From: Candidatus Shapirobacteria bacterium
GTDB lineage: Bacteria; Patescibacteriota; Microgenomatia; UBA12405
Assembly: GCA_041665485.1 (NCBI GenBank)
Contig: JBAYIT010000002.1
Span: forward strand, 69,867 to 133,866
DNA length: 64,000 nt
Reading direction: 5' to 3'
Shown here: positions 45,978 to 58,658 of the stretch, one piece after another
Position numbering within the stretch: the stretch's first letter is position 1
Layout: each line of letters opens with the position of its first letter
Program-made: the position numbers and the translations under genes
Notes under the pieces: generated by a model
Databases searched by the model: none
Told to the model about the DNA's origin: nothing
What the model saw: only the letters and a program-made list of their open reading frames with translations

Positions 45978-46670
45978 ATGGATATAAGAAAAATAACTCT
46001 CTTCGTTCTGGTTATCTTCTCCGGCTTGGCCCTTTCAGGTTGCGGACCGGCCAAAAAAATTGAAACAACAATTACCCCCACCCCCATCCCAAGAGTTGTT
46101 GAGATGCCAGCGGAAGATAGGCCACATATCAGCTTGATTCCCCGGGTGGACGGCCACGAACTCAAACTTAAGATAGACAAAATTCCAAGCTACGTTTCTC
46201 AAATTGAGTACGAGTTACTCTACACCGCCACCGATGAAGGCAACGAAATAGAAAAAGGAGTAGGGGACACCATAAAAGTTACCGGTAACAACCTGGAAAG
46301 AGATCTATTATTGGGAACTGCCAGTTGTACCAACGGCTGTAAATACAAATATGATGCCAACATCAACGGCGGAACCCTAACCCTTACTTTTATTAATCAA
46401 AATTCTCAAGTTTCCACCTATCAAACACCTTTTCGTTTCGTTTCCGGATCAGAATTAAAAAAGACAAAACTTCTGGACCTTCCAACCGAGAATTTTTCTA
46501 TTAGTCTCAATAATCCCGCTTCAGAATTTTTCATCCTACTTAAAAATTACCGCCCCGGATTTTCCGTTTTCAGTAGCGGTTCCGGTAAAGGAAAAGTTAT
46601 CTCCATCACTCCATCCACCTTTACTAAAACCGATCTCAATCTGATTAGTGGCGAATATCTCGGACCTTAA
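45978..46670 (+). CDS. lipoprotein, unknown function
   Basis: Signal peptide with lipobox LALSGC at residues 17-22. Hydrophilic Thr/Gly-rich mature region. Confidence 0.5.
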   Translation: MDIRKITLFVLVIFSGLALSGCGPAKKIETTITPTPIPRVVEMPAEDRPHISLIPRVDGHELKLKIDKIPSYVSQIEYELLYTATDEGNEIEKGVGDTIKVTGNNLERDLLLGTASCTNGCKYKYDANINGGTLTLTFINQNSQVSTYQTPFRFVSGSELKKTKLLDLPTENFSISLNNPASEFFILLKNYRPGFSVFSSGSGKGKVISITPSTFTKTDLNLISGEYLGP

Positions 46671-47530
46671 TGGATTACCACCAATCTGTTCTAGCCAATG
46701 AAATAGTTCAATTACTCTCTCCTGATTCTAATAAAATATTCATCGACGCCACTCTCGGCCACGGCGGACACACCCTAAAATTACTCGAAAGGGGAGCTAT
46801 TGTTTACGGACTTGACGCCGATCCATTATCCCTTGAAATTGCCAAAAAAAGGATTGGTAAAAACAGCAATTTCCACCCAATTAATGCAAACTTTAGAGAT
46901 ATTGGCCAAATTTTTAAAATCCAAATCAATCAACCACTTGACGGCATACTTTTTGATCTTGGTCTAAATCTTTATCAACTTAAACAACAAAATCGCGGAT
47001 TTTCTTTTGACGATACCGACACTCTCGATATGAGACTGAACCCAGATCAATCTTCGCCTACAGCTACCGACCTGATCAACAAACTCACCCAGACTGAACT
47101 TGAAAACTTATTTTCAAAATATGTTCAACAACCATTTTCTCGAGAAATATGTCAAACCATTGTCAATCGTCGGCAACACAGGAAAATAACCACCGCCAAA
47201 GAGCTATCTGAAATCGTAAAAGAATTTTATCTTCAGAAAAAAATATTTTCTTCAAAACATCCCGCCACTCTTATTTTTCTCGGCCTAAGAATCGCCGTTA
47301 ATCAGGAATTTGAATCGCTATCTCTGGCTCTCAATGACTGCTTATCAATCGGACTTCCCAAAACTACTATCGCCGTCATCAGTTTTCATTCCGGAGAGGA
47401 CCGGATTGTAAAAAACTTCATTCGCCAAAACAATCTCCCAACCGGACAAATTAAAAAACCGTCAACTTCGGAAATCCACCAAAACCCACTCTCTCGATCG
47501 GCCATATTAAGATGGTTTAGCCCAAAATGA
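46670..47530 (+). CDS. rsmH: 16S rRNA (cytosine1402-N4)-methyltransferase
   Basis: MDYHQSVLANEIVQLL...FIDATLGHGGHT and GILFDLGLN are RsmH/MraW motifs. First gene of the dcw cluster. Confidence 0.85.
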   Translation: MDYHQSVLANEIVQLLSPDSNKIFIDATLGHGGHTLKLLERGAIVYGLDADPLSLEIAKKRIGKNSNFHPINANFRDIGQIFKIQINQPLDGILFDLGLNLYQLKQQNRGFSFDDTDTLDMRLNPDQSSPTATDLINKLTQTELENLFSKYVQQPFSREICQTIVNRRQHRKITTAKELSEIVKEFYLQKKIFSSKHPATLIFLGLRIAVNQEFESLSLALNDCLSIGLPKTTIAVISFHSGEDRIVKNFIRQNNLPTGQIKKPSTSEIHQNPLSRSAILRWFSPK

Positions 47531-47772
47531 GTAAAATCATTAAGATCACCTTTGTCGTTATTCTTATTCTGGAGCTGACCTTCTCTATTATCTATTCTCA
47601 AATAATAGTTGAGTTAAACGGGCTGTTTCAACAATCCCAAAGCCAAGTTTCTCAAGCCAACGAACTCAATCTTGATTTAACTCAAAAACTATCAGAAATT
47701 ACCTCAATCAAATCTCTCTTGGCCAGTAGTTCAGCTAAAAATTTAAAGCCAATAACCAATGTTCTCTACTAG
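47527..47772 (+). CDS. ftsL: cell division protein FtsL-like (single TM plus coiled coil)
   Basis: 81 aa. N-terminal TM (ITFVVILILELTFSIIY) then a Q/L-rich coiled coil. Sits between rsmH and ftsI with 4-nt overlaps. Confidence 0.45.
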   Translation: MSKIIKITFVVILILELTFSIIYSQIIVELNGLFQQSQSQVSQANELNLDLTQKLSEITSIKSLLASSSAKNLKPITNVLY

Positions 47773-49342
47773 AGTTGGCTCTTTATCTGTTGCCATTATC
47801 ACTAGTTTTATTGTTATATTAGGCCGAATTATTTACTGGCAGTTTTACACTCCAACCAATCTTCGTCGTCAAGAAACCAGCCAAAACTATAGTGATCACC
47901 AAATAGACGAAAATCAAGGAAAAATATACTACAAAGACCATTCTCTCCTGGCTGGAAACAAAAGGGTATACAAATTATCTCTTTATAAACCAAATCTAGA
48001 TAAACCAATTGAAGATGTCCGTCTAATCCTTGAAAAGGAGATCACCAACCTTTTGCCTCAAGATAAAATTCGTCTCCGTTCAATTGTGGAGAAACCAAAC
48101 CTCAAGTGGGTTGACTTTGAAACCGAGATCACCAAGGAACAATATCAAAAAATAAGCACCATTGCCGGCCTCGAATTCAAATCAAAAACTAGTCGTTATT
48201 ACCCCGAGTCGGATTTGTCTCAAAATCTCTTTTTTGGTATAGAAAGCTACTATCGCCGACAACTCCAAGGAAAACCAGGATACTTTTATTCCAATCAGGA
48301 CGCTCTCGGATTACCGGTTTTAACTCAGCATTCATTATATATCGAACCAGTTGACGGTCTCGATCTATCTACGTCTATTGACCGAAGAATACAGTATTTA
48401 ACTGAAACCACCATCGCCGACGGCATCAATAAATATTCCGCTGACTCGGGAATGGCAATTGTTCTGGACCCTCAGTCAGGAGCCGTTTTAAGCCTCGTCA
48501 GTCTTGAGTCTAGCCCTTCTGCTAACCAAAACTCAAAGCTAATTGATCCAATTAGTCATCTCTTTGAACCAGGCTCAATTTTCAAACCATTAGTTGTTGC
48601 TGCCGCTCTCGATTCCAATTCCATCAGCGATGATTATGTCTGCCCCAAATGCGATCAACCATTTATTGCCAGCGGTTTCTCCATCAACAATTGGGACAAA
48701 TCTTTCCACCCCAACACTGACATTAAAGACATTATCAAAAATTCTGACAATATTGGTATGAGTAATATTGTCTTTGTTCTCGGCCAAAAACAATTTCTTA
48801 AGTATTTTAACCTTCTTGGTTTGGACAAAAAAACCGGCATTGACCTCCCCAGTGAAAATATCTCTCCAGTCAAATCATACTGGTCTGACATTGATCTGGC
48901 CACCGCCTCCTTCGGCCAAGGGCTTGCGGTTACCCCCATTCAAATGATTCAGGCCTTCAACTCTCTGGCCAACTCCGGCAAAATCGTTCATCCTCACATC
49001 AATCTTAATAACCCAATTAAGCCACCCATCAAAGTTTACTCTGAAAACACCGTCGAAAAAATAAATCAGATTCTTTCCTACGCCGTCAACAACGGAGTTG
49101 TCTCCCAATTCAAACCAAAAGATCTTGATGTTTGTGCAAAAAGTGGCACTGCTCAGGTCGCCATAAACGGACAATATTCCGACAACTCTTTCATCGCCTC
49201 ATATATTGGCTACTCTCCCTGTCGCCATCCCAAATTTACTTTACTCATAACCCTCTCCAATCCCAAAAGCTCGTCTTGGGGATCAAGTACTGCTGCCCCT
49301 TTGTGGTTCTCGTTAGCGGAAAAAATAGACAAACTGCTATAA
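47759..49342 (+). CDS. ftsI: penicillin-binding protein 2B/FtsI-type transpeptidase
   Basis: SxxK (GSIFKP), SxN (NSDNIG) and KSG(T) (AKSGTAQV) transpeptidase motifs. N-terminal TM and dimerisation domain. Confidence 0.85.
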   Translation: MFSTRVGSLSVAIITSFIVILGRIIYWQFYTPTNLRRQETSQNYSDHQIDENQGKIYYKDHSLLAGNKRVYKLSLYKPNLDKPIEDVRLILEKEITNLLPQDKIRLRSIVEKPNLKWVDFETEITKEQYQKISTIAGLEFKSKTSRYYPESDLSQNLFFGIESYYRRQLQGKPGYFYSNQDALGLPVLTQHSLYIEPVDGLDLSTSIDRRIQYLTETTIADGINKYSADSGMAIVLDPQSGAVLSLVSLESSPSANQNSKLIDPISHLFEPGSIFKPLVVAAALDSNSISDDYVCPKCDQPFIASGFSINNWDKSFHPNTDIKDIIKNSDNIGMSNIVFVLGQKQFLKYFNLLGLDKKTGIDLPSENISPVKSYWSDIDLATASFGQGLAVTPIQMIQAFNSLANSGKIVHPHINLNNPIKPPIKVYSENTVEKINQILSYAVNNGVVSQFKPKDLDVCAKSGTAQVAINGQYSDNSFIASYIGYSPCRHPKFTLLITLSNPKSSSWGSSTAAPLWFSLAEKIDKLL

Positions 49343-49354
49343 TTTAGCCATATC

Positions 49355-50572
49355 ATGCCTTCTATTAGAAAAATAAAAAATATCTTTTGGCATTTACCCA
49401 AAGCCGTTGTTGCCAACATCATTTATCAGTTTCCCAGTCGCCACCTTAAATTAATTGCCGTTACTGGCACCGATGGCAAAACTACTACCGCCACCCTCAT
49501 TCACCATCTCTTAAAAAAATCAGGAATTAAAGTCGGGCTGATTACCACTGTCACCAGCCCGGGTTTACACACCACTTCTCCTGACTCGCTAATTGTCCAA
49601 AAAGTCTTATCTGACTATTTTCACCAGGGTTATAGTCATGTTATTCTCGAAGTTACTGCCCATGCTCTTGACCAATTTCGCTTCTGGGGTTGCCACTTTC
49701 AGGTTGGAGTTTTAACCAATATCACTCACGAACATCTCGACGAATTCAAAACCATGGAAAATTACACCGCCGTCAAAGCTAGTCTCTTTTCCTCCTGCCA
49801 AACCGCCATTCTCAATAAAGACGATCCGTCTTTTCCGCAAATAAAAGCAAAATTTCCAAAAAAAATCATTCCCTACAGTATTAAATCACCCTGTAAATAT
49901 CAGGCTAAAAATATCCATCTTACCTCAAATTCCATTACCTTTACCGCCAATAGGCTAAAGATAGTCACCGACAGCCCTTATCGTTATCAAATTTACAACA
50001 TTCTTCCAAGTCTTATAATCTCTGACCTTTTCAAACTAAAGCGGTCAAGTTTTCAAAAAAATATCGCCGTTTTTCCTCACATCTCCGGACGCAGACAAGA
50101 GGTCAACAATCGTTTTGGTTTCAAAACTATTGTTGATTTTGCCCACACCCCCAATGCTCTCAAAAACACTCTTGAATCTCTCAAGAAAAAAAGGGGGAGC
50201 AAAATAATTGTTATCTTTGGAGCCACCGGTGGCCGAGACCAATCCAAACGTCCGCTTATGGGCAAGGTCGTTTCTGAATTGTCTGATATTGCCATCATTA
50301 CCTCCGACGACACCAGAAGTGAAAACATCTCCGTCATTAATCGTCAAATAATCTCCGGAATCACAAAAAATAAGAAATTCAAATATTATCAAATCGAAAA
50401 CCGTCAAGAGGCTTTTAATTATGCTGTTAGTATTGCCAAAACCAACGACATCATTATCGCCTGTGGCAAAGGTCACGAACAAACCATTCTCCTCGGTAAT
50501 ATCGAATACCCCTGGTCTGAAACCGCCGCCTTTCAAACCGCCTTCAAACTAAGAAGTCAAAAACATGACTAA
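49355..50572 (+). CDS. murE: UDP-N-acetylmuramoyl-L-alanyl-D-glutamate--diamino-acid ligase (MurE) lacking the N-terminal UDP-binding domain
   Basis: IYQFPSRHLKLIAVTGTDGKTTTA aligns to the E. coli MurE domain-2 start (FYHEPS..LVGVTGTNGKTTT). C-terminal GGRDQSKRPLMG and TSDDTRSEN correspond to MurE GGDRDKGKRPLMG and TDDNPRTEE. Only about 30 residues precede the P-loop; there is no room upstream for domain 1. Confidence 0.75.
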   Translation: MPSIRKIKNIFWHLPKAVVANIIYQFPSRHLKLIAVTGTDGKTTTATLIHHLLKKSGIKVGLITTVTSPGLHTTSPDSLIVQKVLSDYFHQGYSHVILEVTAHALDQFRFWGCHFQVGVLTNITHEHLDEFKTMENYTAVKASLFSSCQTAILNKDDPSFPQIKAKFPKKIIPYSIKSPCKYQAKNIHLTSNSITFTANRLKIVTDSPYRYQIYNILPSLIISDLFKLKRSSFQKNIAVFPHISGRRQEVNNRFGFKTIVDFAHTPNALKNTLESLKKKRGSKIIVIFGATGGRDQSKRPLMGKVVSELSDIAIITSDDTRSENISVINRQIISGITKNKKFKYYQIENRQEAFNYAVSIAKTNDIIIACGKGHEQTILLGNIEYPWSETAAFQTAFKLRSQKHD

Positions 50573-51155
50573 ATATAATCTAAAACCATCCAGTCCAGAC
50601 CCTGCCACAAACTATGCTCTTGGTTTACTCCCTCAAAGAAACGTGGCCCACCTCTGGTATCAGGACACCAGTTGCCGATCTAATCTTTCAAAATTTAAGC
50701 TTTCCTCAGAAAACAAAAGAATAATAAAATTAACCGGCGATTTTGAATTCGAAAAAATACCTTTATTAAAATTTAACCTATCATCAAGTCTCCTAAACAC
50801 CATAAACACCTGGTCTGAGACCCTGGACTGGCAATTTCCCAAAAGCTCAATTAGAAATGTTTTTACTCACCACATCTTCAATTATCTTTACCTCTGGAAA
50901 AAAACAGGCAGTCAGAATGTTGTTGCCTATTCTGTCTGTTATTTTGATCAAAACATCTCTCATATCGCCTACGTTTTTTATCACCCCAGTCTGGCCCGAA
51001 CCAATCTTCCCATCAGGCTGACTCTTCAATCCATTATTGATAGTCAAAAATTGGGGCTAAAATATTGTTATCTTGGTCGTTTCAGTCATTACAAACGCAA
51101 CTTTCCCGGATTTGAACATTATCAAAATCAAATCTGGTCGGATTACCGCCACTAA
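50565..51155 (+). CDS. hypothetical protein; weak resemblance to aminoacyl-tRNA-protein transferase (ATE_C/Bpt, Fem-like fold) C-terminal region
   Basis: 196 aa. The C-terminal YCYLGRFSHYKRNFPGFEHYQNQIW recalls the ATE/Bpt YLGY..KM.YK..F.P.E...W region. The match is from memory only and weak. Confidence 0.25.
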   Translation: MTKYNLKPSSPDPATNYALGLLPQRNVAHLWYQDTSCRSNLSKFKLSSENKRIIKLTGDFEFEKIPLLKFNLSSSLLNTINTWSETLDWQFPKSSIRNVFTHHIFNYLYLWKKTGSQNVVAYSVCYFDQNISHIAYVFYHPSLARTNLPIRLTLQSIIDSQKLGLKYCYLGRFSHYKRNFPGFEHYQNQIWSDYRH

Positions 51156-51159
51156 CAAC

Positions 51160-52461
51160 ATGAAAATACACATTTTAGGTATCGCCGGAACTAAAACAGC
51201 CCCCCTTGCCATTCTTTTGCAAAGAATGGGCCACCAAGTTAGTGGTTCTGATCAGCCACAAATTTTTCCCCCCATCAGTACCCTGCTTGCTAAAAACAAA
51301 ATCCCTATCAATTCCACTCCCATCACCAAAGAAATTGATCAGGTTATTGTCGGCAACTCTTTTAAATCATTCCAACTTTGTCAATCAGAATACCAACAGG
51401 CACAAAAGCTTAAAATCCCCACCATGTCTTACACCCAGTACCTAATTAGAAATCTTATTAAAAAACAATCAATACTTGTTGCCGGATCTTATGGTAAAAC
51501 AACTATCACTGGTTTATTATCGTTTGTTTTTCTTAAACTTAAACTTGACCCGTCGTATATGTTTGGTGGCCAAGCGGTAAATCATCTCGAATCAACCAGA
51601 TTCGGTCAGTCTGATTTTTCAATTATCGAAGCCTGTGAGTCTATAAACGGACTAGATACCCAGTCAACATTCCTATATTATCCAATTAAGTACGTCATAT
51701 TGACATCCGCCGATTGGGAACATAAAGATTCCTTTAAAACCGAACAAGAAAATTTAAAAGCATTTATTCAACTGGTTAGTAAAATCCCTAAAAATGGCCT
51801 ACTTGTCTATAACCCCAAAAGCAAATCAGCCTCATCAGTCGCCCAATACTCTTCGGCCAAAAAAGTACCGTACAACTACTCTTTAAACATAAACCCGATT
51901 ATTCCCGGAAAATATAACTTCGAAAACTCACTTGCAGTGGCTACTCTCTGCCAAGAATTAGGGTTGAATAAAATCGCATTCATCAAAGCCATTAATCAAT
52001 TCCGAGGAATTAAACGTCGATTAGAACCTATTTACCACCACAAAGACATATTGATATACGACGATTTCGCCCAATCTCCGGTAAGAATAAGCCAAGCGCT
52101 TCAAGCTATATCCGAAAAACATCCAAACTGTCCGATCAAAGTTTTTTTCGAACCTCATGCCTCCTTTCTTCAATACCAAGCCGGAATTAAAGGTCTTAAA
52201 GAATCTCTCCAAATAGCCACTGAAATTATTGTTTCGCCATTAAAATTTTCTGAAAGTGTCTCTAAATCAGACAGAGTAACTATTAAGGACTATCAAAAAA
52301 TTCTTGAAAAAAAAATGGAATACATTCCCGATTACCAATTGATTTCCCAACATTATCTTCAAACACTTCAAAAGGGGGATATCTTAATTCATTTTAGCTC
52401 CGGAGGCCTTAATGGCCTTACTTGCTTAAAAAAGATTGCTAAAAACTTAATTTCCCGATAA
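51160..52461 (+). CDS. MurC/Mpl-family UDP-N-acetylmuramate--amino acid/peptide ligase, Mpl-like
   Basis: Start at ATG 51160. MKIHILGIAGT..LAILLQRMGHQVSGSDQPQIFPPISTLL resembles Mpl (MRIHILGICGT..GHEVTGSD..YPPMSTLL). P-loop LVAGSYGKTT, GQSDFSIIEA, YDDFAQSP (compare Mpl YDDFAHHP). Confidence 0.65.
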   Translation: MKIHILGIAGTKTAPLAILLQRMGHQVSGSDQPQIFPPISTLLAKNKIPINSTPITKEIDQVIVGNSFKSFQLCQSEYQQAQKLKIPTMSYTQYLIRNLIKKQSILVAGSYGKTTITGLLSFVFLKLKLDPSYMFGGQAVNHLESTRFGQSDFSIIEACESINGLDTQSTFLYYPIKYVILTSADWEHKDSFKTEQENLKAFIQLVSKIPKNGLLVYNPKSKSASSVAQYSSAKKVPYNYSLNINPIIPGKYNFENSLAVATLCQELGLNKIAFIKAINQFRGIKRRLEPIYHHKDILIYDDFAQSPVRISQALQAISEKHPNCPIKVFFEPHASFLQYQAGIKGLKESLQIATEIIVSPLKFSESVSKSDRVTIKDYQKILEKKMEYIPDYQLISQHYLQTLQKGDILIHFSSGGLNGLTCLKKIAKNLISR

Positions 52462-52470
52462 CATTAACCA

Positions 52471-53505
52471 ATGACTCATCTTTTTCTCGGTCTGCTCCTC
52501 TTTTCTTTTTTAACCACCAGCATTCTCGTTGTCCCTTTCATAAATCTTCTCTACCGCCTTAAATTTCAACGTCAGAACCAAAAAACAGTTGACTTCCAGA
52601 ATAAAAAAACTGAAATATTTGATAAGTTTCACTCTCAAAAACAGGGGACTCCTGTCGGTGGTGGCCTCCTCATTATTCTTTCCGTCTGCCTTCTTTTCAT
52701 TATTCTTCTTCCTATTCTAAAATTTGCTCGTATTTTTATCTCCTCTAACTACCAAATGGAGAGTGAACTGGGCATAATTTTCTTCTCTTTCATTAGTTTT
52801 GCTCTTCTCGGCCTATATGATGATGTTCACAAGTTTTTCGGCTTCCAAAAAACAGGCTTTTTTGGATTGAAGATGCGCCAAAAGCTACTTCTCCAAATTT
52901 TTTTGGCCACCGTTATTTCTTGTCTAATTTACTTCCAACTAGGAATTAACTTTATTTACATCCCCTTTGCTGGAGCTGTTAGTCTTGGTCTGTTTTTTAT
53001 TCCCATAAGCAGTGTTATTATCGTTGCCTTCGCCAACTTCTTCAATATTACTGACGGGCTTGACGGCCTTTCCTGCGGGCTTTTAATGATTTCTCTTTTT
53101 GCTTTTTGGTTTCTTAGTAGCAACTCTCTGGATACTCCAATTTCTCTCTTTCTTAGTCTGTGGCTGGGAGCATTAATTGCCTTCCTGTATTTCAATGTCT
53201 TTCCCGCCCGCATCTGGCTGGGCGACGTCGGCTCTCTCTCCTTTGGAGCCACCTTTGCCGTCATCGCCATTCTTCTCGGAAAAATTGTCCCTCTTATTAT
53301 TGTTGGCTCACCCTTCATTATTGAAGGCCTTTCCAGTGCTATCCAGATTATTAGTAAGAAATATTTTAATCGAAAAATATTCCCTGCCGCTCCCATCCAC
53401 CTCACCCTCCAACATTTTGGTTGGGAAGAGCCAAAAATCGTTCTTCGTGCTTGGCTTGCCGGTATTATTCTCGCTATCTTTGGCCTATGGCTCGGACTAA
53501 ACTAG
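52471..53505 (+). CDS. mraY: phospho-N-acetylmuramoyl-pentapeptide-transferase
   Basis: NITDGLDGL and WLGDVGSLSFGATFA are MraY signature motifs. 10 TM segments, 344 aa. Confidence 0.9.
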   Translation: MTHLFLGLLLFSFLTTSILVVPFINLLYRLKFQRQNQKTVDFQNKKTEIFDKFHSQKQGTPVGGGLLIILSVCLLFIILLPILKFARIFISSNYQMESELGIIFFSFISFALLGLYDDVHKFFGFQKTGFFGLKMRQKLLLQIFLATVISCLIYFQLGINFIYIPFAGAVSLGLFFIPISSVIIVAFANFFNITDGLDGLSCGLLMISLFAFWFLSSNSLDTPISLFLSLWLGALIAFLYFNVFPARIWLGDVGSLSFGATFAVIAILLGKIVPLIIVGSPFIIEGLSSAIQIISKKYFNRKIFPAAPIHLTLQHFGWEEPKIVLRAWLAGIILAIFGLWLGLN

Positions 53506-54194
53506 AAAAATTACTAACAGAAGAGGTCAATCATTATTTAGGAATTCCGTATGCTAAAAACTACTGGAAAAACAACCTCTTAATTAAAGAGGCTATTCTT
53601 GGTGGCAAAGGAACCTGGCCGGAAATTGACTACGCCACCACTTGCGCCGGAGAAAAATACCAAGTTGACATCACCTCTCTATCACCCAAAGAACTCTATA
53701 ATTTTCAAAAAAAACACAAGATCGGCATCGATTGCTCCGGTCTCGTCTACCACCTACTCGATTTCATCGATAAAAATATTGGCGCAAATGGCATTCTATT
53801 TAAAGTTGTCAGTGTTAATCCTAATCATGGCAAATATGGCGTTAGGTCACTATCAGCCGACAGCCTCACCAATTCTATAAATTCTTACCCCATCACCAAT
53901 TATTCTCATGTTCAGCTCGGAGATTTAATTCGCCATCATCAAGGCAAGCACACTCTCCTTATTACCGGCCAAAAGAACAACCGCCTCAACTATGTTCACA
54001 GTAGTCTCACCACTTTAGTTTCCGGAGTTCACACCGGCTATATCAAAATAATTGACCCTCAAAAACCACTTTTTTACCAAGATTGGACCGATGTCACTAA
54101 AAACCACCAAAAATATCAGGAACTTTCTGACTCCAAAGCCGGGGACGGCATATATCGCCTTAATTGCTGGAAAAATATTACTTTTCCTCTATAA
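53487..54194 (+). CDS. NlpC/P60-family (papain-like) cell-wall peptidase/amidase-like protein
   Basis: Start at ATG 53487, overlapping the mraY 3' end by 19 nt. GIDCSGLVYHLL is the NlpC/P60 catalytic Cys motif. A downstream His-containing region (HVQLGDLIRHHQGKH) follows. Confidence 0.5.
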   Translation: MARTKLEKLLTEEVNHYLGIPYAKNYWKNNLLIKEAILGGKGTWPEIDYATTCAGEKYQVDITSLSPKELYNFQKKHKIGIDCSGLVYHLLDFIDKNIGANGILFKVVSVNPNHGKYGVRSLSADSLTNSINSYPITNYSHVQLGDLIRHHQGKHTLLITGQKNNRLNYVHSSLTTLVSGVHTGYIKIIDPQKPLFYQDWTDVTKNHQKYQELSDSKAGDGIYRLNCWKNITFPL

Positions 54195-54345
54195 GTTCTC
54201 GATATTTAGATGGGTCTAAAGATAATATCTCTACTTCCGTTCCACATTCTTGGCACTCTAAAATGTCGCCAACTTCCAGCAATCCTTCTGTTTTTTTAAT
54301 CTCCATTCCGCAATCTGGGCAAATAATTTTTTTGTTTTGGTCCAT
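54178..54345 (-). CDS. LysW-like C4 zinc-ribbon small protein (55 aa), not in the supplied ORF track
   Basis: Reverse complement translates to MDQNKKIICPDCGMEIKKTEGLLEVGDILECQECGTEVEILSLDPSKYRELIEEK. The CPxCG...GE...C.ECG.E.E...LDP pattern mirrors LysW/ArgW amino-group carrier proteins (CPECGAEL..GELVVCEDCGAELEVVGLDP). The C-terminus is EEK, not the canonical ..EDWGE. Confidence 0.45.
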   Translation of the reverse strand: MDQNKKIICPDCGMEIKKTEGLLEVGDILECQECGTEVEILSLDPSKYRELIEEK

Positions 54346-54378: not shown

Positions 54379-55167
54379 ATGACACCTTTAATCAAATTCG
54401 AAAACATCTACTTTAAGAGGGAAGATCAAAACCCTACCGGGTCGGCCAAAGATCGAAGCCTTCCACTGCAACTAAAAAATCTTCTTGCTAAAAACTATCA
54501 ATCAGCTGTCATCTCATCTTCTGGTAACGCCGCCATCTCTGCTATCTTTTATTGTCGAAAACTAAATATTCCTCTCAAAGTCTTTCTTTCTCCACAAACT
54601 GATCCTTACAAATTAAAATTAATTCTCTCTCAACATCAGGATGTCACCCTTACTCCATCTCCCAATAGTCTGGCTTTTAAATACGCCAAAACTAACCATT
54701 CATATCTCCTGCGTCAATCAACCGACCCTGTTGCCCAAATCGGTTACTCCACTATTGCCACCGAAATAGTTTCCAAGCTCCCTCTTGTTTCCAGCATCTT
54801 TATACCTGTTGGCTCCGGAACCACTCTCCTTGGCGTCTCCAAAAATTTACCCCAAAACGTAAAAATATTCGCCGTAGAACCGGCCTCTCGCTACGGCCAA
54901 GAATCAGAAACTATCACCGACGCACTATCTGTCAAACTAACCCCTCTTAAATCAGAAGTCGCCGAAGCTATTAAAAAACATCACGGGTCAAATATCATCG
55001 TAAGAAACCAAGCCGTTTTAGATAATCTAAAAAAACTCCATCAACATCAAATAAACACTTCTCCCGAAGGCGCTCTTGCTTTAACAGGCTATTATCAAGC
55101 CAAAACAAAATTTGAAGTTGGAGACTACCCCGTTATTTTATTAACTGGCATTAATCGCCAAATATGA
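54379..55167 (+). CDS. fold-type II PLP-dependent enzyme, cysteine synthase/CBS (CysK)-like, short (262 aa)
   Basis: FKREDQNPTGSAKDRSL is the PLP-lysine motif (CysK E..NPxGSvKDR, threonine synthase NPTGSFKDR). SSGNAAISAIFYC matches TSGNTG. A Gly-rich loop PVGSGTTLLG is present. Confidence 0.6.
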   Translation: MTPLIKFENIYFKREDQNPTGSAKDRSLPLQLKNLLAKNYQSAVISSSGNAAISAIFYCRKLNIPLKVFLSPQTDPYKLKLILSQHQDVTLTPSPNSLAFKYAKTNHSYLLRQSTDPVAQIGYSTIATEIVSKLPLVSSIFIPVGSGTTLLGVSKNLPQNVKIFAVEPASRYGQESETITDALSVKLTPLKSEVAEAIKKHHGSNIIVRNQAVLDNLKKLHQHQINTSPEGALALTGYYQAKTKFEVGDYPVILLTGINRQI

Positions 55168-56213
55168 AAAAACTAATCCAACTAATTATCAACTCTGGCT
55201 ACACTATCATTTATCCTCAGGTCGACGAATTCCTCGGAATTGATTTCCCCCAACTTAATTGCTTTCATTCTCTCAAAAATGAATCAAAAACAGTAAAAAA
55301 TACTGGCCAATTTCTTAAATCAAACCTGAAATTCATAAGTCAGGAATTTAAACCGCCAATCGCCATCATGCCTTTCAAACCATCAGCCAAAACCGAAAAA
55401 ATTTGCCAAAAGCAAAATTGGCTGGTTCTAAGCAATCCCGCCAAATTAAATCGTCTACTGGAAGACAAAATAAAATTCAGCCAACTTTGCCACCAACACA
55501 AACTCCCCACCATCCCCCATCTTGTCGCTCCACTCGATCAAGAAAATTTTCTTTTGGCTCAAAAAAAATTTGGCCCGAAACTCGTTCTTCAAACTCACTT
55601 CGGCTGGGCCGGCAATAGCACCTTTTATTTTGAAAGTTATCAGGAAATCGCCAATAAAATTTCCCCAAACACCCTTTGTAAGTTTTCACCCTACCTGGAG
55701 GGCTACACTCTCATTAACAACTGCTGTCAAACAAAATTTGGTCTAATTCAAAGCCCAGTTGGCCGTCAACTTACCGGCCTTAAAGAATATACCCAAAACC
55801 CTTTTGCCACTGTTGGACGTCAGTGGCCCTCTCTTGCTCCTCAATCTGTTATCAATCAGGTGGTTGAGGTTACTAAACTACTATCCGACAAATTGCTAAA
55901 AAAATACGATTATCGTGGTTTTTTCGGAATAGATTTTTTTGTCCACCAAAACCGAGTTATGATTCTTGAAATTAATCCCCGATTAACCGCCTCATTTGGT
56001 TTCTACACTAAACTCGAAACGGATAACAATATCACCCCTCTTTTCCTCTTTCACTTAGCCGAATTTCTTAACCTTGATTATCAGGTCGATTTTGATCGAG
56101 AACAGTCAAGAACTGACTCCTCTTTAATTGTTGGCACCGAAATAACTCCCAAAGACAAGTTCGGTAAAACCATTGCCCAATACCACCAGACTTCCCCTAT
56201 TATCAAGGATTAG
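55164..56213 (+). CDS. ATP-grasp family ligase (RimK/LysX/Ddl-like), specificity unknown
   Basis: LEDKIKFSQLCHQHKLPTIPHL (central domain) and RGFFGIDFFVHQNRVMILEINPRLTAS (C-terminal Mg/ATP site) are generic ATP-grasp motifs. It lacks the Ddl N-terminal HG..GEDG signature. Confidence 0.55.
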   Translation: MKKLIQLIINSGYTIIYPQVDEFLGIDFPQLNCFHSLKNESKTVKNTGQFLKSNLKFISQEFKPPIAIMPFKPSAKTEKICQKQNWLVLSNPAKLNRLLEDKIKFSQLCHQHKLPTIPHLVAPLDQENFLLAQKKFGPKLVLQTHFGWAGNSTFYFESYQEIANKISPNTLCKFSPYLEGYTLINNCCQTKFGLIQSPVGRQLTGLKEYTQNPFATVGRQWPSLAPQSVINQVVEVTKLLSDKLLKKYDYRGFFGIDFFVHQNRVMILEINPRLTASFGFYTKLETDNNITPLFLFHLAEFLNLDYQVDFDREQSRTDSSLIVGTEITPKDKFGKTIAQYHQTSPIIKD

Positions 56214-57252: not shown

Positions 57253-58297
57253 TAAGGTAATCTGCCTTACCGGCAATCACCATACTCCAGCCATAGAACT
57301 TATTCGCCAACTAAAACAGCAACCCCAAAAGTGGCAAATAAGCTATTTAACCCACAGCTATCAAACTGAGACTCACATCAAAAACACCATTATTCCTAAA
57401 CTCAATGTCAGCCTCCATCTAATTCAATGCAACAAATTCGACCGTCAAAAACCACTTCTGTCCATCTTTAAAACACCACTCTTAATCGTTGGCATTTTTC
57501 AATCTTTATTACTTCTTAAGTCGGAAAAACCAGATATTGTCGTTTCTTTTGGTGGTTATGTTTCTGTTCCGGTAATTATTGCTGCTTGGATTCTCAAAAT
57601 TCCCTCAATCACCCACGAACAAACACTCACTATCGGCCTGGCTACCAAAATAAATAGTTACTTCTGCCAAAAAGTTGCTCTGTCTTTTCCTGGTCCTGAC
57701 ATTAACAATAAAACTATCGTCACTGGCAATCTTCTTCGCCAACAAATCTTCGATACCAAATCAAAAAAATATCAAAGTCTTGAATCAAAAATTAAAAAAT
57801 CACCACTAATTTATATCACCGGAGGCAGTCAAGGATCCCAATTTATTAATGACTTAACCGTTAGTATTTTACCTCAACTTAGCCAATACACAATTATCCA
57901 TCAAACCGGGCCAAAACCAACTCAAACAAACAACAAATATCCCAATTATCACCAGACCGAATATATTGACCTCGAAGATATCGGCTGGGTTTTCCACCAA
58001 TCCTCTTTAATTGTCAGCCGAGCCGGGGCTAATATTTGTCAGGAAATTGCCACTCTCAACCATCAATCAATTATTATTCCTCATCCCAAAACTCAACAAG
58101 ACGAACAAATAAAAAACGCCCAGTGGCTTAAATCAAGATTACCGGAATTAACCACTATTATTCCTCAATCAAAAGCCAACTCTAGTTTAGTTACAAGGGC
58201 GATTTTTAAACACCTTAATTCCAAAATTAAAAACAACAAAACAATCGCGGGCCAAACAACCCATCCTCTAATCAATCTCATCAATGAAATGGTTTAA
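57242..58297 (+). CDS. murG: UDP-GlcNAc--undecaprenyl-PP-MurNAc-pentapeptide GlcNAc transferase
   Basis: GT28 architecture. LIYITGGSQGSQFIN (MurG GGSQGA motif). N-terminal LTGNHHTPAIEL Gly-rich loop variant. Confidence 0.8.
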   Translation: MPNNKVICLTGNHHTPAIELIRQLKQQPQKWQISYLTHSYQTETHIKNTIIPKLNVSLHLIQCNKFDRQKPLLSIFKTPLLIVGIFQSLLLLKSEKPDIVVSFGGYVSVPVIIAAWILKIPSITHEQTLTIGLATKINSYFCQKVALSFPGPDINNKTIVTGNLLRQQIFDTKSKKYQSLESKIKKSPLIYITGGSQGSQFINDLTVSILPQLSQYTIIHQTGPKPTQTNNKYPNYHQTEYIDLEDIGWVFHQSSLIVSRAGANICQEIATLNHQSIIIPHPKTQQDEQIKNAQWLKSRLPELTTIIPQSKANSSLVTRAIFKHLNSKIKNNKTIAGQTTHPLINLINEMV

Positions 58298-58658
58298 AGT
58301 TCTTCTCATTATTTTTATTGTCGCCTCTTTCTTCTTCTTTAGATTGTCACTTCACTATCAAAATATCTCCCCAAATTCAAACAATCTTAGTCAGTATCTT
58401 AAATTCAAGTCCGCCCTGGAATCAAACGGTTTTATAATCCACACGATCGATATAAGCTCCCTAAATCAAGCTAAAGTATTAATTTCAAACACCAAGGAAA
58501 CCCCATCATTCACTGTTTACTTCAATCTTGATCATCCCATCGAGCAACAGCTTATGCTCTTACAAAAGGTAACTAAAATCGCTACAATTAAACTTAAATA
58601 CCCCTACCTTATAGATTTCGGCGGGGAAAAACCATATGCCACACTCAAAAATAATTAG
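58284..58658 (+). CDS. small bitopic membrane protein, possible minimal FtsQ/DivIB-like (POTRA only)
   Basis: 124 aa. N-terminal TM (VLLIIFIVASFFFF) plus a roughly 95-aa periplasmic domain. The position between murG and ftsA is the canonical ftsQ slot. Confidence 0.3.
   Translation: MKWFKVLLIIFIVASFFFFRLSLHYQNISPNSNNLSQYLKFKSALESNGFIIHTIDISSLNQAKVLISNTKETPSFTVYFNLDHPIEQQLMLLQKVTKIATIKLKYPYLIDFGGEKPYATLKNN

Follow-up and report, generated by a model that had tools for sequence, protein, structure and literature searches.

The window analysed here is a stretch of 64 kb on a contig of ~335 kb from a metagenome-assembled genome (MAG) of Candidatus Shapirobacteria, ultra-small bacteria of the Microgenomates within the Candidate Phyla Radiation (CPR), and it includes a division and cell wall (dcw) type operon whose precursor genes have been partly exchanged. 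Across the lineage, murE and murA have been kept, an ATE-like protein and an ATP-dependent ligase of the MurC/Mpl superfamily stand where pgeF-murC-murB stood, NlpC/P60, LysW-type, pyridoxal phosphate (PLP) dependent and ATP-grasp proteins stand in the (murI-)murD slot, and murF is gone from the operon. This rewiring, in which six new genes entered the operon, suggests a non-standard route to the cell-wall peptide. The ligase, encoded on the plus strand at 51160-52461 (433 aa; NCBI MFA6518534.1) in the ancestral murC slot, may be the lineage's first ligase to act on UDP-linked N-acetylmuramic acid (UDP-MurNAc), which it would load with a preformed short peptide rather than with a single L-alanine. 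Judging from sequence and gene order, we regard this reading as plausible, though short of probable.

The ligase and its family

The gene is intact and lies where the preliminary description of this DNA had put an Mpl-like ligase. A longer open reading frame (ORF; 51073-52461) opens with TTG; the homologues all begin M(H/K)IHILGIAGT, and since the family alignment thus fixes the N-terminus we place the start at the ATG at 51160, 4 nt past the stop of the upstream gene. The product has the Pfam domains Mur_ligase (N-terminal, PF01225), Mur_ligase_M (PF08245) and Mur_ligase_C (PF02875), and with them the Rossmann-like N-domain with a Gly-rich loop, the P-loop ATPase centre and the C-domain of the Mur superfamily. 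Residues G10, K113 of the P-loop, E157/E160, H188, N256, R286/R287 and D301/D302 are invariant in the family and, with all catalytic residues in place, the enzyme looks active. Its AlphaFold2 model (pLDDT 92.7) matches the MurC/Mpl fold over the whole length, the top PDB matches in Foldseek being H. influenzae MurC (1P31) and Psychrobacter Mpl (3HN7; E ~1e-31). Note that structure comparison does not tell MurC from Mpl here, as both come out on top in Foldseek and the TM-score is governed mainly by the orientation of the domains.

The claim that Mpl fits this enzyme better than MurC stands for pairwise comparison, where E. coli Mpl scores 132.7 bits (3.6e-40) in phmmer and E. coli MurC 81.3 bits (1.2e-24), with identities of 28% and 22%, respectively. 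It does not stand for the curated NCBIfam models, of which murC (TIGR01082; 211 bits, E 3.3e-62) scores higher than mpl (TIGR01081; 161 bits, E 4.8e-47), neither reaching its cut-off (335.1 and 388.7). Run against solved structures, a profile of the ligase family does about equally well with Psychrobacter Mpl (186.9 bits) as with Roseburia MurC (186.7).

When E. coli MurC, MurD, MurE, MurF, Mpl and DdlB were run with phmmer against every ORF of at least 50 aa, the only Mur-ligase ORFs found in the window were 49355-50572, a MurE, and 51160-52461. No MurC, MurD, MurF or Ddl was found there, which bears out what had been said of the cluster, and neither 10-kb flank of the window adds a Mur ligase, Ddl, MurA or MurB, so that the ligase and MurE are the sole Mur ligases in the window and its flanks. 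Neither murB nor murI was found in that same span. A second MurC-type gene was found neither in the 84 kb around the ligase nor in 82 related loci.

Residues, motifs and trees

We tabulated residues for 77 members of the ligase family and seven references, and aligned the motifs besides. By these alignments the ligase is a mosaic of MurC and Mpl features. The IYPP(I/M)ST segment is of Mpl type (MurC has a 2-residue gap there), as are a loop inserted after EADE that ends in D-x-x-(A/S)-K-F, the motif DDFA (DDY(G/A) in MurC) and EP followed by one extra residue (QPH-R in MurC). Near the C-terminus the family reads S-S-G-G, Mpl SNGG and MurC GAGN. The Ser after EADE and the His of the (E/Q)PH motif are of MurC type. 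A trait confined to the family is Q-S (Q in 100% and S in 99% of the 77 members) for the H-H of DD(F/Y)xHHP, a pair present in every MurC and Mpl sequence compared.

The changes extend to the residues that hold the substrate. In HiMurC, L-Ala is held by Y346, H348, H376, R377 and R380 (PMC3060825). The first four positions read F (96%), Q (100%), H (95%) and S (94%) in the ligase family and the fifth is Q in the aligned sequences, so that only H376 is kept and the clamp arginines R377 and R380 are lost. A set of C-domain residues is specific to Mpl, comprising, in PaMpl, R357, R358, F374, A375, H376, H377, E402, P403, R404, S405, N406, T407, S483, N484 and G485 (PMC3060825). From this set the family retains R357, R358, F374, A375, P403, S483 and G485, has E402 in 52% of members, and alters H376 to Q (100%), H377 to S (99%), R404 to H, S405 to A, N406 to S, T407 to F and N484 to S. 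The Mpl hallmark (S/T)AFFDKRSK after EADE was reported in 2011, from 17 sequences, to be present in all Mpl enzymes and in no other Mur ligase (PMC3060825). At this site the family carries S-I-(N/H)-G-L-D-(T/K)-(Q/K)-A-K-F, an insertion that is one residue shorter and has AFF replaced; within it, D188 (100%) and K192 (97%) are conserved. The enzyme would combine an Mpl-like N-terminal and middle part with a re-modelled C-terminal substrate-binding domain.

Neighbour-joining (NJ) trees (300 bootstraps, few references) group the family with Mpl at 85%, 83% and 93%, and still do so once the canonical MurC sequences of two related CPR lineages, L094 and L096, are added. Grouping with MurC reaches 0-2%, with L094 MurC 6% and with L096 MurC 0%. 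The phylogeny that had been proposed as a check therefore places the family with Mpl (83-93% in the NJ trees) and with MurC at no more than 6%; along with the shared indels and motifs, this agrees with the view that the enzyme is Mpl-like rather than an ordinary MurC. We conclude, with moderate confidence, that the ligase resembles Mpl without being a member of Mpl. Nor does it look like a vertically inherited version of the canonical MurC that its nearest relatives (L094, L096) carry, and even on a conservative reading the family stands apart as a third, well-populated branch of MurC/Mpl with a distinct predicted substrate pocket.

Genes replaced in the operon

The dcw-type run at 46.7-61.0 kb reads as a single operon because its frames overlap or nearly abut, with intergenic distances of -41 to +33 nt from rsmH to ftsZ. 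Its genes are as follows.

46670-47530, 47527-47772 and 47759-49342, plus strand: upstream backbone, comprising rsmH, an FtsL-like gene (81 aa) and the class B penicillin-binding protein FtsI (Pfam Methyltransf_5, PBP_dimer, Transpeptidase)
49355..50572, plus strand: MurE with the N-terminal (UDP-binding) domain wholly missing; 405 aa; NCBIfam murE 339-351 bits from profile position ~90
50565..51155, plus strand: ATE_C-like protein (arginyl/aminoacyl-tRNA-protein transferase, Fem-type GNAT fold); 196 aa; in the pgeF slot of the outgroup
51160..52461, plus strand: the MurC/Mpl-superfamily ligase
52471..53505, plus strand: MraY (phospho-MurNAc-pentapeptide transferase); Pfam Glycos_transf_4 4.5e-28; TIGR00445 164 bits
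53487..54194, plus strand: cytoplasmic NlpC/P60-type cysteine peptidase or amidase; no signal peptide; heads the module in the former murI-murD slot
54178..54345, minus strand: LysW-type zinc-ribbon protein; 55 aa; Pfam Zn_ribbon_LysW 34.7-50 bits (cut-off 27)
54379..55167, plus strand: fold-type II PLP enzyme (ThrC/serine-racemase/dehydratase group); 262 aa; Pfam PALP 4.5e-40; PLP-lysine motif SAKDR
55164..56213, plus strand: divergent ATP-grasp ligase; 349 aa; Pfam ATP-grasp_3 6.3e-7; best NCBIfam match PRK06524, 110 bits
56173..60995, plus strand: downstream backbone, comprising ftsW, murG, a gene in the FtsQ position (124 aa), ftsA and ftsZ (Pfam, NCBIfam)

Outgroups were chosen stepwise by falling identity of MraY, a backbone gene that lies between the two insertions and is 70-83% identical across the lineage. 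The closest, L096 (MraY 67.6% identical), has the order mraZ-rsmH-ftsL-ftsI-murE(deltaN)-pgeF-murC-murB-murA-murF-mraY-murD-ftsW-murG-ftsQ-ftsA-ftsZ, where deltaN marks a MurE lacking its N-terminal domain, and two metagenome loci (L099, L101) order their ligase genes in the same way. L097 reads mraY-murI-murD-ftsW and L094 ftsI-murA-murE-murC-murB-murD-murI-murF-mraY; L093 (CP129472.1, 841,695 bp) carries a MurC-MurB fusion, MurD, MurI, a MurF-like ligase and FemAB ahead of mraY. As L096 and L097 have pgeF-murC and murI-murD at exactly the slots in question, we read the change as in-place replacement: the slots of two of the genes reported missing, murC and murD, are held by new genes, and the ligase sits between murE and murA/mraY just as pgeF-murC-murB does in L096. 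The lack of ddl, in turn, carries little information, as ddl is likewise absent there from L093, L094 and L096, three of the four sister loci that were looked at in detail. Fusions occur in the sister lineages, of MurE with an NTP_transferase/IspD-type domain (676 aa, L094:2250-4280) and of MurC with MurB (711 aa, L093:1-937).

The preliminary description had pointed to an N-truncated MurE, an ATP-grasp protein (55164-56213) and a PLP enzyme (54379-55167) in the cluster. All three are there; together with the ligase they had prompted a speculative reading in which the stem peptide is partly pre-assembled. In the window protein the P-loop lies at residue ~36 (36-44 in an alignment with 71 orthologues), compared with 116 in E. 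coli MurE. Its catalytic motifs are kept, DNPR reading DDTR with the Arg retained and GKGHE being intact, and because of this Arg and GKGHE the third stem residue is likely of diaminopimelate (DAP) type. The same N-domain-less MurE (406 aa, same N-terminus, 328 bits) is found in L096 beside canonical MurC, MurB, MurA, MurF and MurD, so that the truncation provides no evidence for leaving the nucleotide-bound pathway and is no clue to pre-assembly. MurF, too, commonly lacks its N-domain in related lineages with canonical clusters, and we have discarded MurE truncation as a sign of an off-nucleotide substrate. Loss of the N-domain from MurE and MurF is widespread in Microgenomates with canonical MurC and MurD; examples of such truncated proteins lie at 49355-50572 of the window, L096:3224-4444, L096:8783-9976, L094:8962-9987 and L093:5822-7084, the MurF-like protein of L093 starting with a hydrophobic segment.

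Distribution and gene order

Scanning one genome per GTDB species for the signature EA[DC]ESI[NH]GL, we found at least 225 relatives and examined the best 80 loci (L009-L088), all of which come from MAGs of Shapirobacteria, Woesebacteria or Patescibacteria, some of them mislabelled. Carriers such as L016, L018, L021-L023 and many others bear titles like 'uncultured Gammaproteobacteria bacterium', 'Candidatus Methanoperedens sp.', 'Candidatus Parcubacteria' or 'Candidatus Saccharibacteria'; by their gene content and synteny they are members of the same Microgenomates lineage.

Gene order is invariant in these 80 loci: DUF4012-(RecO)-GlyRS-lipoprotein-rsmH-ftsL-ftsI-MurE(deltaN)-ATE-like-ligase-(murA)-mraY, followed by NlpC/P60-LysW-like(-)-PLP-ATP-grasp-ftsW-murG-short FtsQ-position gene-ftsA-ftsZ-(IleRS). 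Most of them have murA between ligase and mraY; it is missing in 11 of the 80 and in the window (52461-52471). MurC, MurD, MurF, MurB, MurI and Ddl were not found in 82 related loci (the 80 GTDB loci plus L006 and L007, ~1.3 Mb), CPR queries included. Conversely, among the matches listed by a scan with a CPR MurD alignment, 80 MurD-bearing metagenome loci, none of the cassette genes was found and no locus had a MraY of the lineage's type (at least 70% identity), a search that a relocated murD would escape. In the samples examined, then, cassette and canonical states are mutually exclusive. No relative was found among the viral contigs of IMG/VR.

Neighbouring genes

Three of the neighbours are additional to those in the preliminary description: the ATE_C/Fem-fold protein, the NlpC/P60 peptidase and the LysW-type gene on the minus strand. 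The ATE-like protein of the window matches Pfam ATE_C at 8.2e-5 (23.6 bits, cut-off 25) and the NCBIfam arginyltransferase model at 2.5e-6; ATE_C is matched by 39 of 39 orthologues, the best at 4e-8, and a search by sequence returned no solved relative. The NlpC/P60 protein has DCSG (C83) and H155 invariant and (D/H)171-S-S conserved in 40 orthologues, in the canonical order. Pfam NLPC_P60 (PF00877) matches 30 of these 40 (best 2.6e-6) and does not match the window protein itself.

The LysW-like protein scores 38.7-46.6 bits with TIGR01206 (lysW), below the cut-off of 53.2 and over the globular part only, and in all 62 orthologues it ends in (I/V)EEK rather than in EDWGE, the tail of LysW carriers. 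Its gene lies antisense inside an otherwise co-directional, overlapping operon, a position and orientation kept in 62 genomes. For the PLP enzyme, threonine-synthase-like NCBIfam models give at most 85 bits, far under their cut-off, and among solved proteins it is serine racemases that come nearest (55.6 bits, 6e-14). The ATP-grasp protein matches only CPSase/PurK in the PDB, at E of 0.03 or above, and no LysX/RimK model in NCBIfam. We rejected it as a Ddl homologue, since hhalign against E. coli DdlB gave a probability of 9.8% over a generic motif of 30 columns.

The peptidase raises the question of whether the cassette might be an accessory. In this scenario a full canonical set from MurC to MurF would sit elsewhere, and the ligase, NlpC/P60 protein and neighbours would form an Mpl-type module that recycles or scavenges wall peptides of the host or the environment. 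The Mpl-like sequence features of the ligase would fit, as would a cytoplasmic NlpC/P60 peptidase in the operon, which recalls known peptide-recycling routes, and CPR bacteria are metabolically poor scavengers, with Shapirobacteria among the poorest (PMC6744442). However, the sole MurE seen is the orthologue, by position and by sequence (328 bits), of the operon MurE of the outgroup and for this reason looks like part of the main pathway rather than a spare. Moreover, the new genes substitute for murC and murD in place instead of being added alongside, two full routes are unlikely in genomes of ~0.7-1.1 Mb, and the ligase has not retained the residues linked to tripeptide binding in Mpl. We consider an accessory role improbable.

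Upstream of the dcw operon, window 1-41400 holds genes for glycosyltransferases, dTDP-rhamnose synthesis, methyltransferases, an ABC-2 exporter, DUF2142 and PMT_2-type membrane proteins, along with several ORFs of 460-560 aa that have no Pfam match, and is presumably a surface-glycan locus. With so large a glycan-synthesis region nearby, and a ligase C-domain that is unlike those of MurC and Mpl both, one might suppose that the enzyme acts on some other nucleotide-sugar acid or glycopolymer and that its place in the operon is incidental. This we find very hard to credit: the ligase is translationally packed among murE, murA and mraY in 80 species, its N-terminal Gly-rich loop and central UDP-MurNAc/ATP residues are conserved, the MurC/Mpl fold is matched over the full length and, without the ligase, no enzyme of the operon could start the stem peptide.

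Further observations concern the operon as a whole. mraZ, present in the outgroups, is absent from the window, where a predicted lipoprotein (230 aa, 45978-46670) precedes rsmH instead. The gene in the FtsQ position (58284-58658) codes for 124 aa with no POTRA match; its counterparts in the outgroups have 226-257 aa, with a weak POTRA match in L092. GC skew is ~-0.29 over window 1-64000 whatever the gene orientation, and at third codon positions it is -0.56 for plus-strand genes and +0.49 on the coding strand of minus-strand genes. All 80 related loci, too, have their dcw genes coded on the C-rich strand (median skew -0.17), which leaves two explanations: a lagging-strand position of the operon in the whole lineage, or an inversion of the usual skew polarity.

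A preformed peptide or a single amino acid?

Here we infer the substrate of the ligase, the roles of its neighbours and a genome-wide lack of MurC and MurD, and propose the following course of events. The ligase would act in the manner of Mpl and supply UDP-MurNAc with a preformed peptide, for which L-Ala-D-Glu would be the most economical choice. L-Ala-D-Glu would be made by the ATP-grasp protein, with D-Glu coming from the racemase-like PLP enzyme, and MurC, MurD and MurI would thereby be replaced. The LysW-like carrier and the NlpC/P60 peptidase would have a helper or release role, and the ATE/Fem-like aminoacyl-tRNA transferase beside the ligase would contribute to making or salvaging the peptide; a carrier-bound or tRNA-dependent step by these three proteins is possible, though purely conjectural. 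N-domain-less MurE, of DAP type, would add the third residue as it does in relatives, with murB and probably murF and ddl encoded elsewhere. In its strongest form, the proposal is that a lineage numbering at least 225 species-level genomes builds its murein with neither MurC nor MurD, and perhaps with no MurF; the stem peptide would be part-made off the nucleotide by PLP enzyme, ATP-grasp, EEK-tailed LysW carrier, NlpC/P60 and aminoacyl-tRNA transferase and then loaded in one step by an Mpl-type ligase. In this form we consider the proposal doubtful.

Alternatively, the ligase may be a functional MurC, a fast-evolving local descendant of murC or a substitute for it, that joins a single residue (L-Ala, or Gly/L-Ser) to UDP-MurNAc. 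The D-Glu step would then fall to a MurD encoded elsewhere, or ATP-grasp and PLP enzyme would be analogues of MurD and MurI; MurF, Ddl and MurB would be elsewhere and the ATE-like protein would be a Fem-type enzyme that adds branches. This, too, is a credible reading, if a somewhat unlikely one, and as far as the logic of the slots goes, preformed peptide and single amino acid fit almost equally well.

We nonetheless lean towards a preformed peptide because the C-domain has lost the residues by which MurC binds L-Ala and has acquired or retained features of Mpl type, because pgeF vanished together with murC, and because Mpl enzymes take dipeptides and longer peptides. PgeF/YfiH edits wrong amino acids placed in position 1 by MurC, and its loss is therefore in keeping with a ligase that has ceased to select single amino acids. 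Mpl is known to use di-, tri-, tetra- and pentapeptides, PaMpl turning over L-Ala-D-Glu at 1.4 per min (PMC3060825). For a functional MurC, by contrast, it is awkward that only one of the five residues in contact with L-Ala survives and that the HH common to the MurC and Mpl sequences compared is gone, that grouping with MurC, CPR relatives included, never exceeds 6% of bootstraps, that pgeF was lost along with murC, and that no MurD was seen in the 82 related loci nor any MurD locus with MraY of the lineage's type among the 80 metagenome loci listed.

Several observations weigh against a preformed peptide and, for the most part, in favour of a single amino acid. The ligase lies exactly in the outgroup's murC slot, between murE and murA, and the curated MurC model outscores the Mpl model on it. 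The canonical MurC of L096 (L096:5162-6586) has an insertion after EADE that resembles the Mpl hallmark, VNSPGIDNRPRF, as well as a longer GSD..IF segment, as in the ligase; since this MurC carries such a loop, the EADE loop is not restricted to Mpl, contrary to PMC3060825, and its use as an exclusive Mpl synapomorphy is weakened. The putative peptide-binding residues of Mpl (H376, H377, R404, N406, T407, N484) are not conserved in the ligase. A tree of the C-domain alone supports family plus Mpl at only 29%; identities are 21-27% throughout, so that the family and Mpl, both long branches, may attract one another, and the ligase is 26-27% identical to Mpl and to the nearest MurCs alike. Relocation of genes does occur: Amesbacteria-like loci carry no Mur ligase in the operon, and murB, on which the retained murA depends if it is used, is absent from all loci searched, so at least one precursor gene must sit outside the operon. 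N-domain-less MurE works beside canonical MurC and MurD in L096, and FemAB adjoins mraY in the sister L093, a precedent for a tRNA-dependent branch enzyme at that place. Over-expressed E. coli Mpl can serve as MurC and use L-Ala (PMC3060825), which makes even Mpl-likeness compatible with an L-Ala substrate. Finally, the ATP-grasp protein that took the murD slot might just as well be a direct analogue of MurD with UDP-MurNAc-L-Ala as its substrate, in which case the ligase would be an ordinary MurC. The idea that the enzyme is simply a divergent MurC, raised as the alternative in the preliminary description, is therefore weakened by the trees, while the murC slot, the low identities and the EADE loop of L096 still speak for it.

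Implications

We found no description of the ligase family or of the cluster in the literature on peptidoglycan and Mur ligases of CPR, Microgenomates, Shapirobacteria and Patescibacteria. The rewiring of the operon is new as an observation and the ligase is a new, populous variant in the MurC/Mpl branch; a new pathway is so far a suggestion. In a large uncultivated lineage, an Mpl-like ligase and non-canonical genes have taken over the positions of murC (with its editing partner pgeF) and of murI-murD. Should the missing genes prove truly absent, the lineage would provide the first case among bacteria of a murein pathway whose stem peptide is put together in a convergent or salvage-type manner, and would give an Mpl-type enzyme a physiological role other than recycling. 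Such a pathway would also bear on the supply of D-glutamate and diaminopimelate in host-dependent CPR bacteria.

Comparison with known systems

With Mpl, the top pairwise match among the E. coli ligases, the enzyme shares the three-domain MurC-type architecture, IYPP(M/I)ST, an EADE loop ending D..(S/A)KF, DDFA, EP plus an extra residue, and S-x-G-G near the C-terminus. It differs in being only 26-28% identical, in not conserving the hallmark AFF, N69/R73/G74, HH, R404, N406, T407 and N484, and in its location: E. coli Mpl is encoded away from dcw and recycles beside a separate MurC, whereas the ligase lies inside the dcw operon, in the murC slot. With MurC (E. coli, H. influenzae 1P3D, Roseburia 9IR5, L094, L096) it has in common the fold, the catalytic residues, the operon position and the best curated hidden Markov model (HMM). 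Unlike MurC, to which it is 21-27% identical, it has no equivalents of Y346, H348, R377 and R380 and no HH, carries indels of Mpl type, does not group with MurC in trees, and has lost pgeF, murB and murD as neighbours.

The cassette also recalls the LysW/LysX carrier systems of lysine and arginine biosynthesis in Thermus and archaea, in that a LysW-fold protein is found beside an ATP-grasp protein and a peptidase of the releasing kind, an arrangement that would suit an amino acid or peptide bound to a carrier. Here, however, the tail is (I/V)EEK and not EDWGE, the ATP-grasp protein is not RimK/LysX-like, the partners are a fold-type II PLP enzyme and NlpC/P60 rather than LysZ/Y/J/K, and the context is a cell-wall operon. 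The 196-aa neighbour resembles Fem/MurM and Aat/Bpt/ATE1 in its predicted ATE_C-type, GNAT-related fold, and FemAB is similarly placed by mraY in L093; in contrast to Fem proteins it has half the length of FemX/FemA, and its ATE_C match lies only around the gathering threshold. Lastly, the archaeal pseudomurein ligases pMurC/D/E with their CPS-like ATP-grasp proteins are a further case of a Mur-type set rewired with ATP-grasp enzymes for a non-canonical wall peptide. They match the ligase weakly by HMM and structure, with scores far below those of MurC and Mpl, and the bacterial hosts of the ligase differ from those archaea in keeping murein-type MraY, MurG, FtsW and FtsI.

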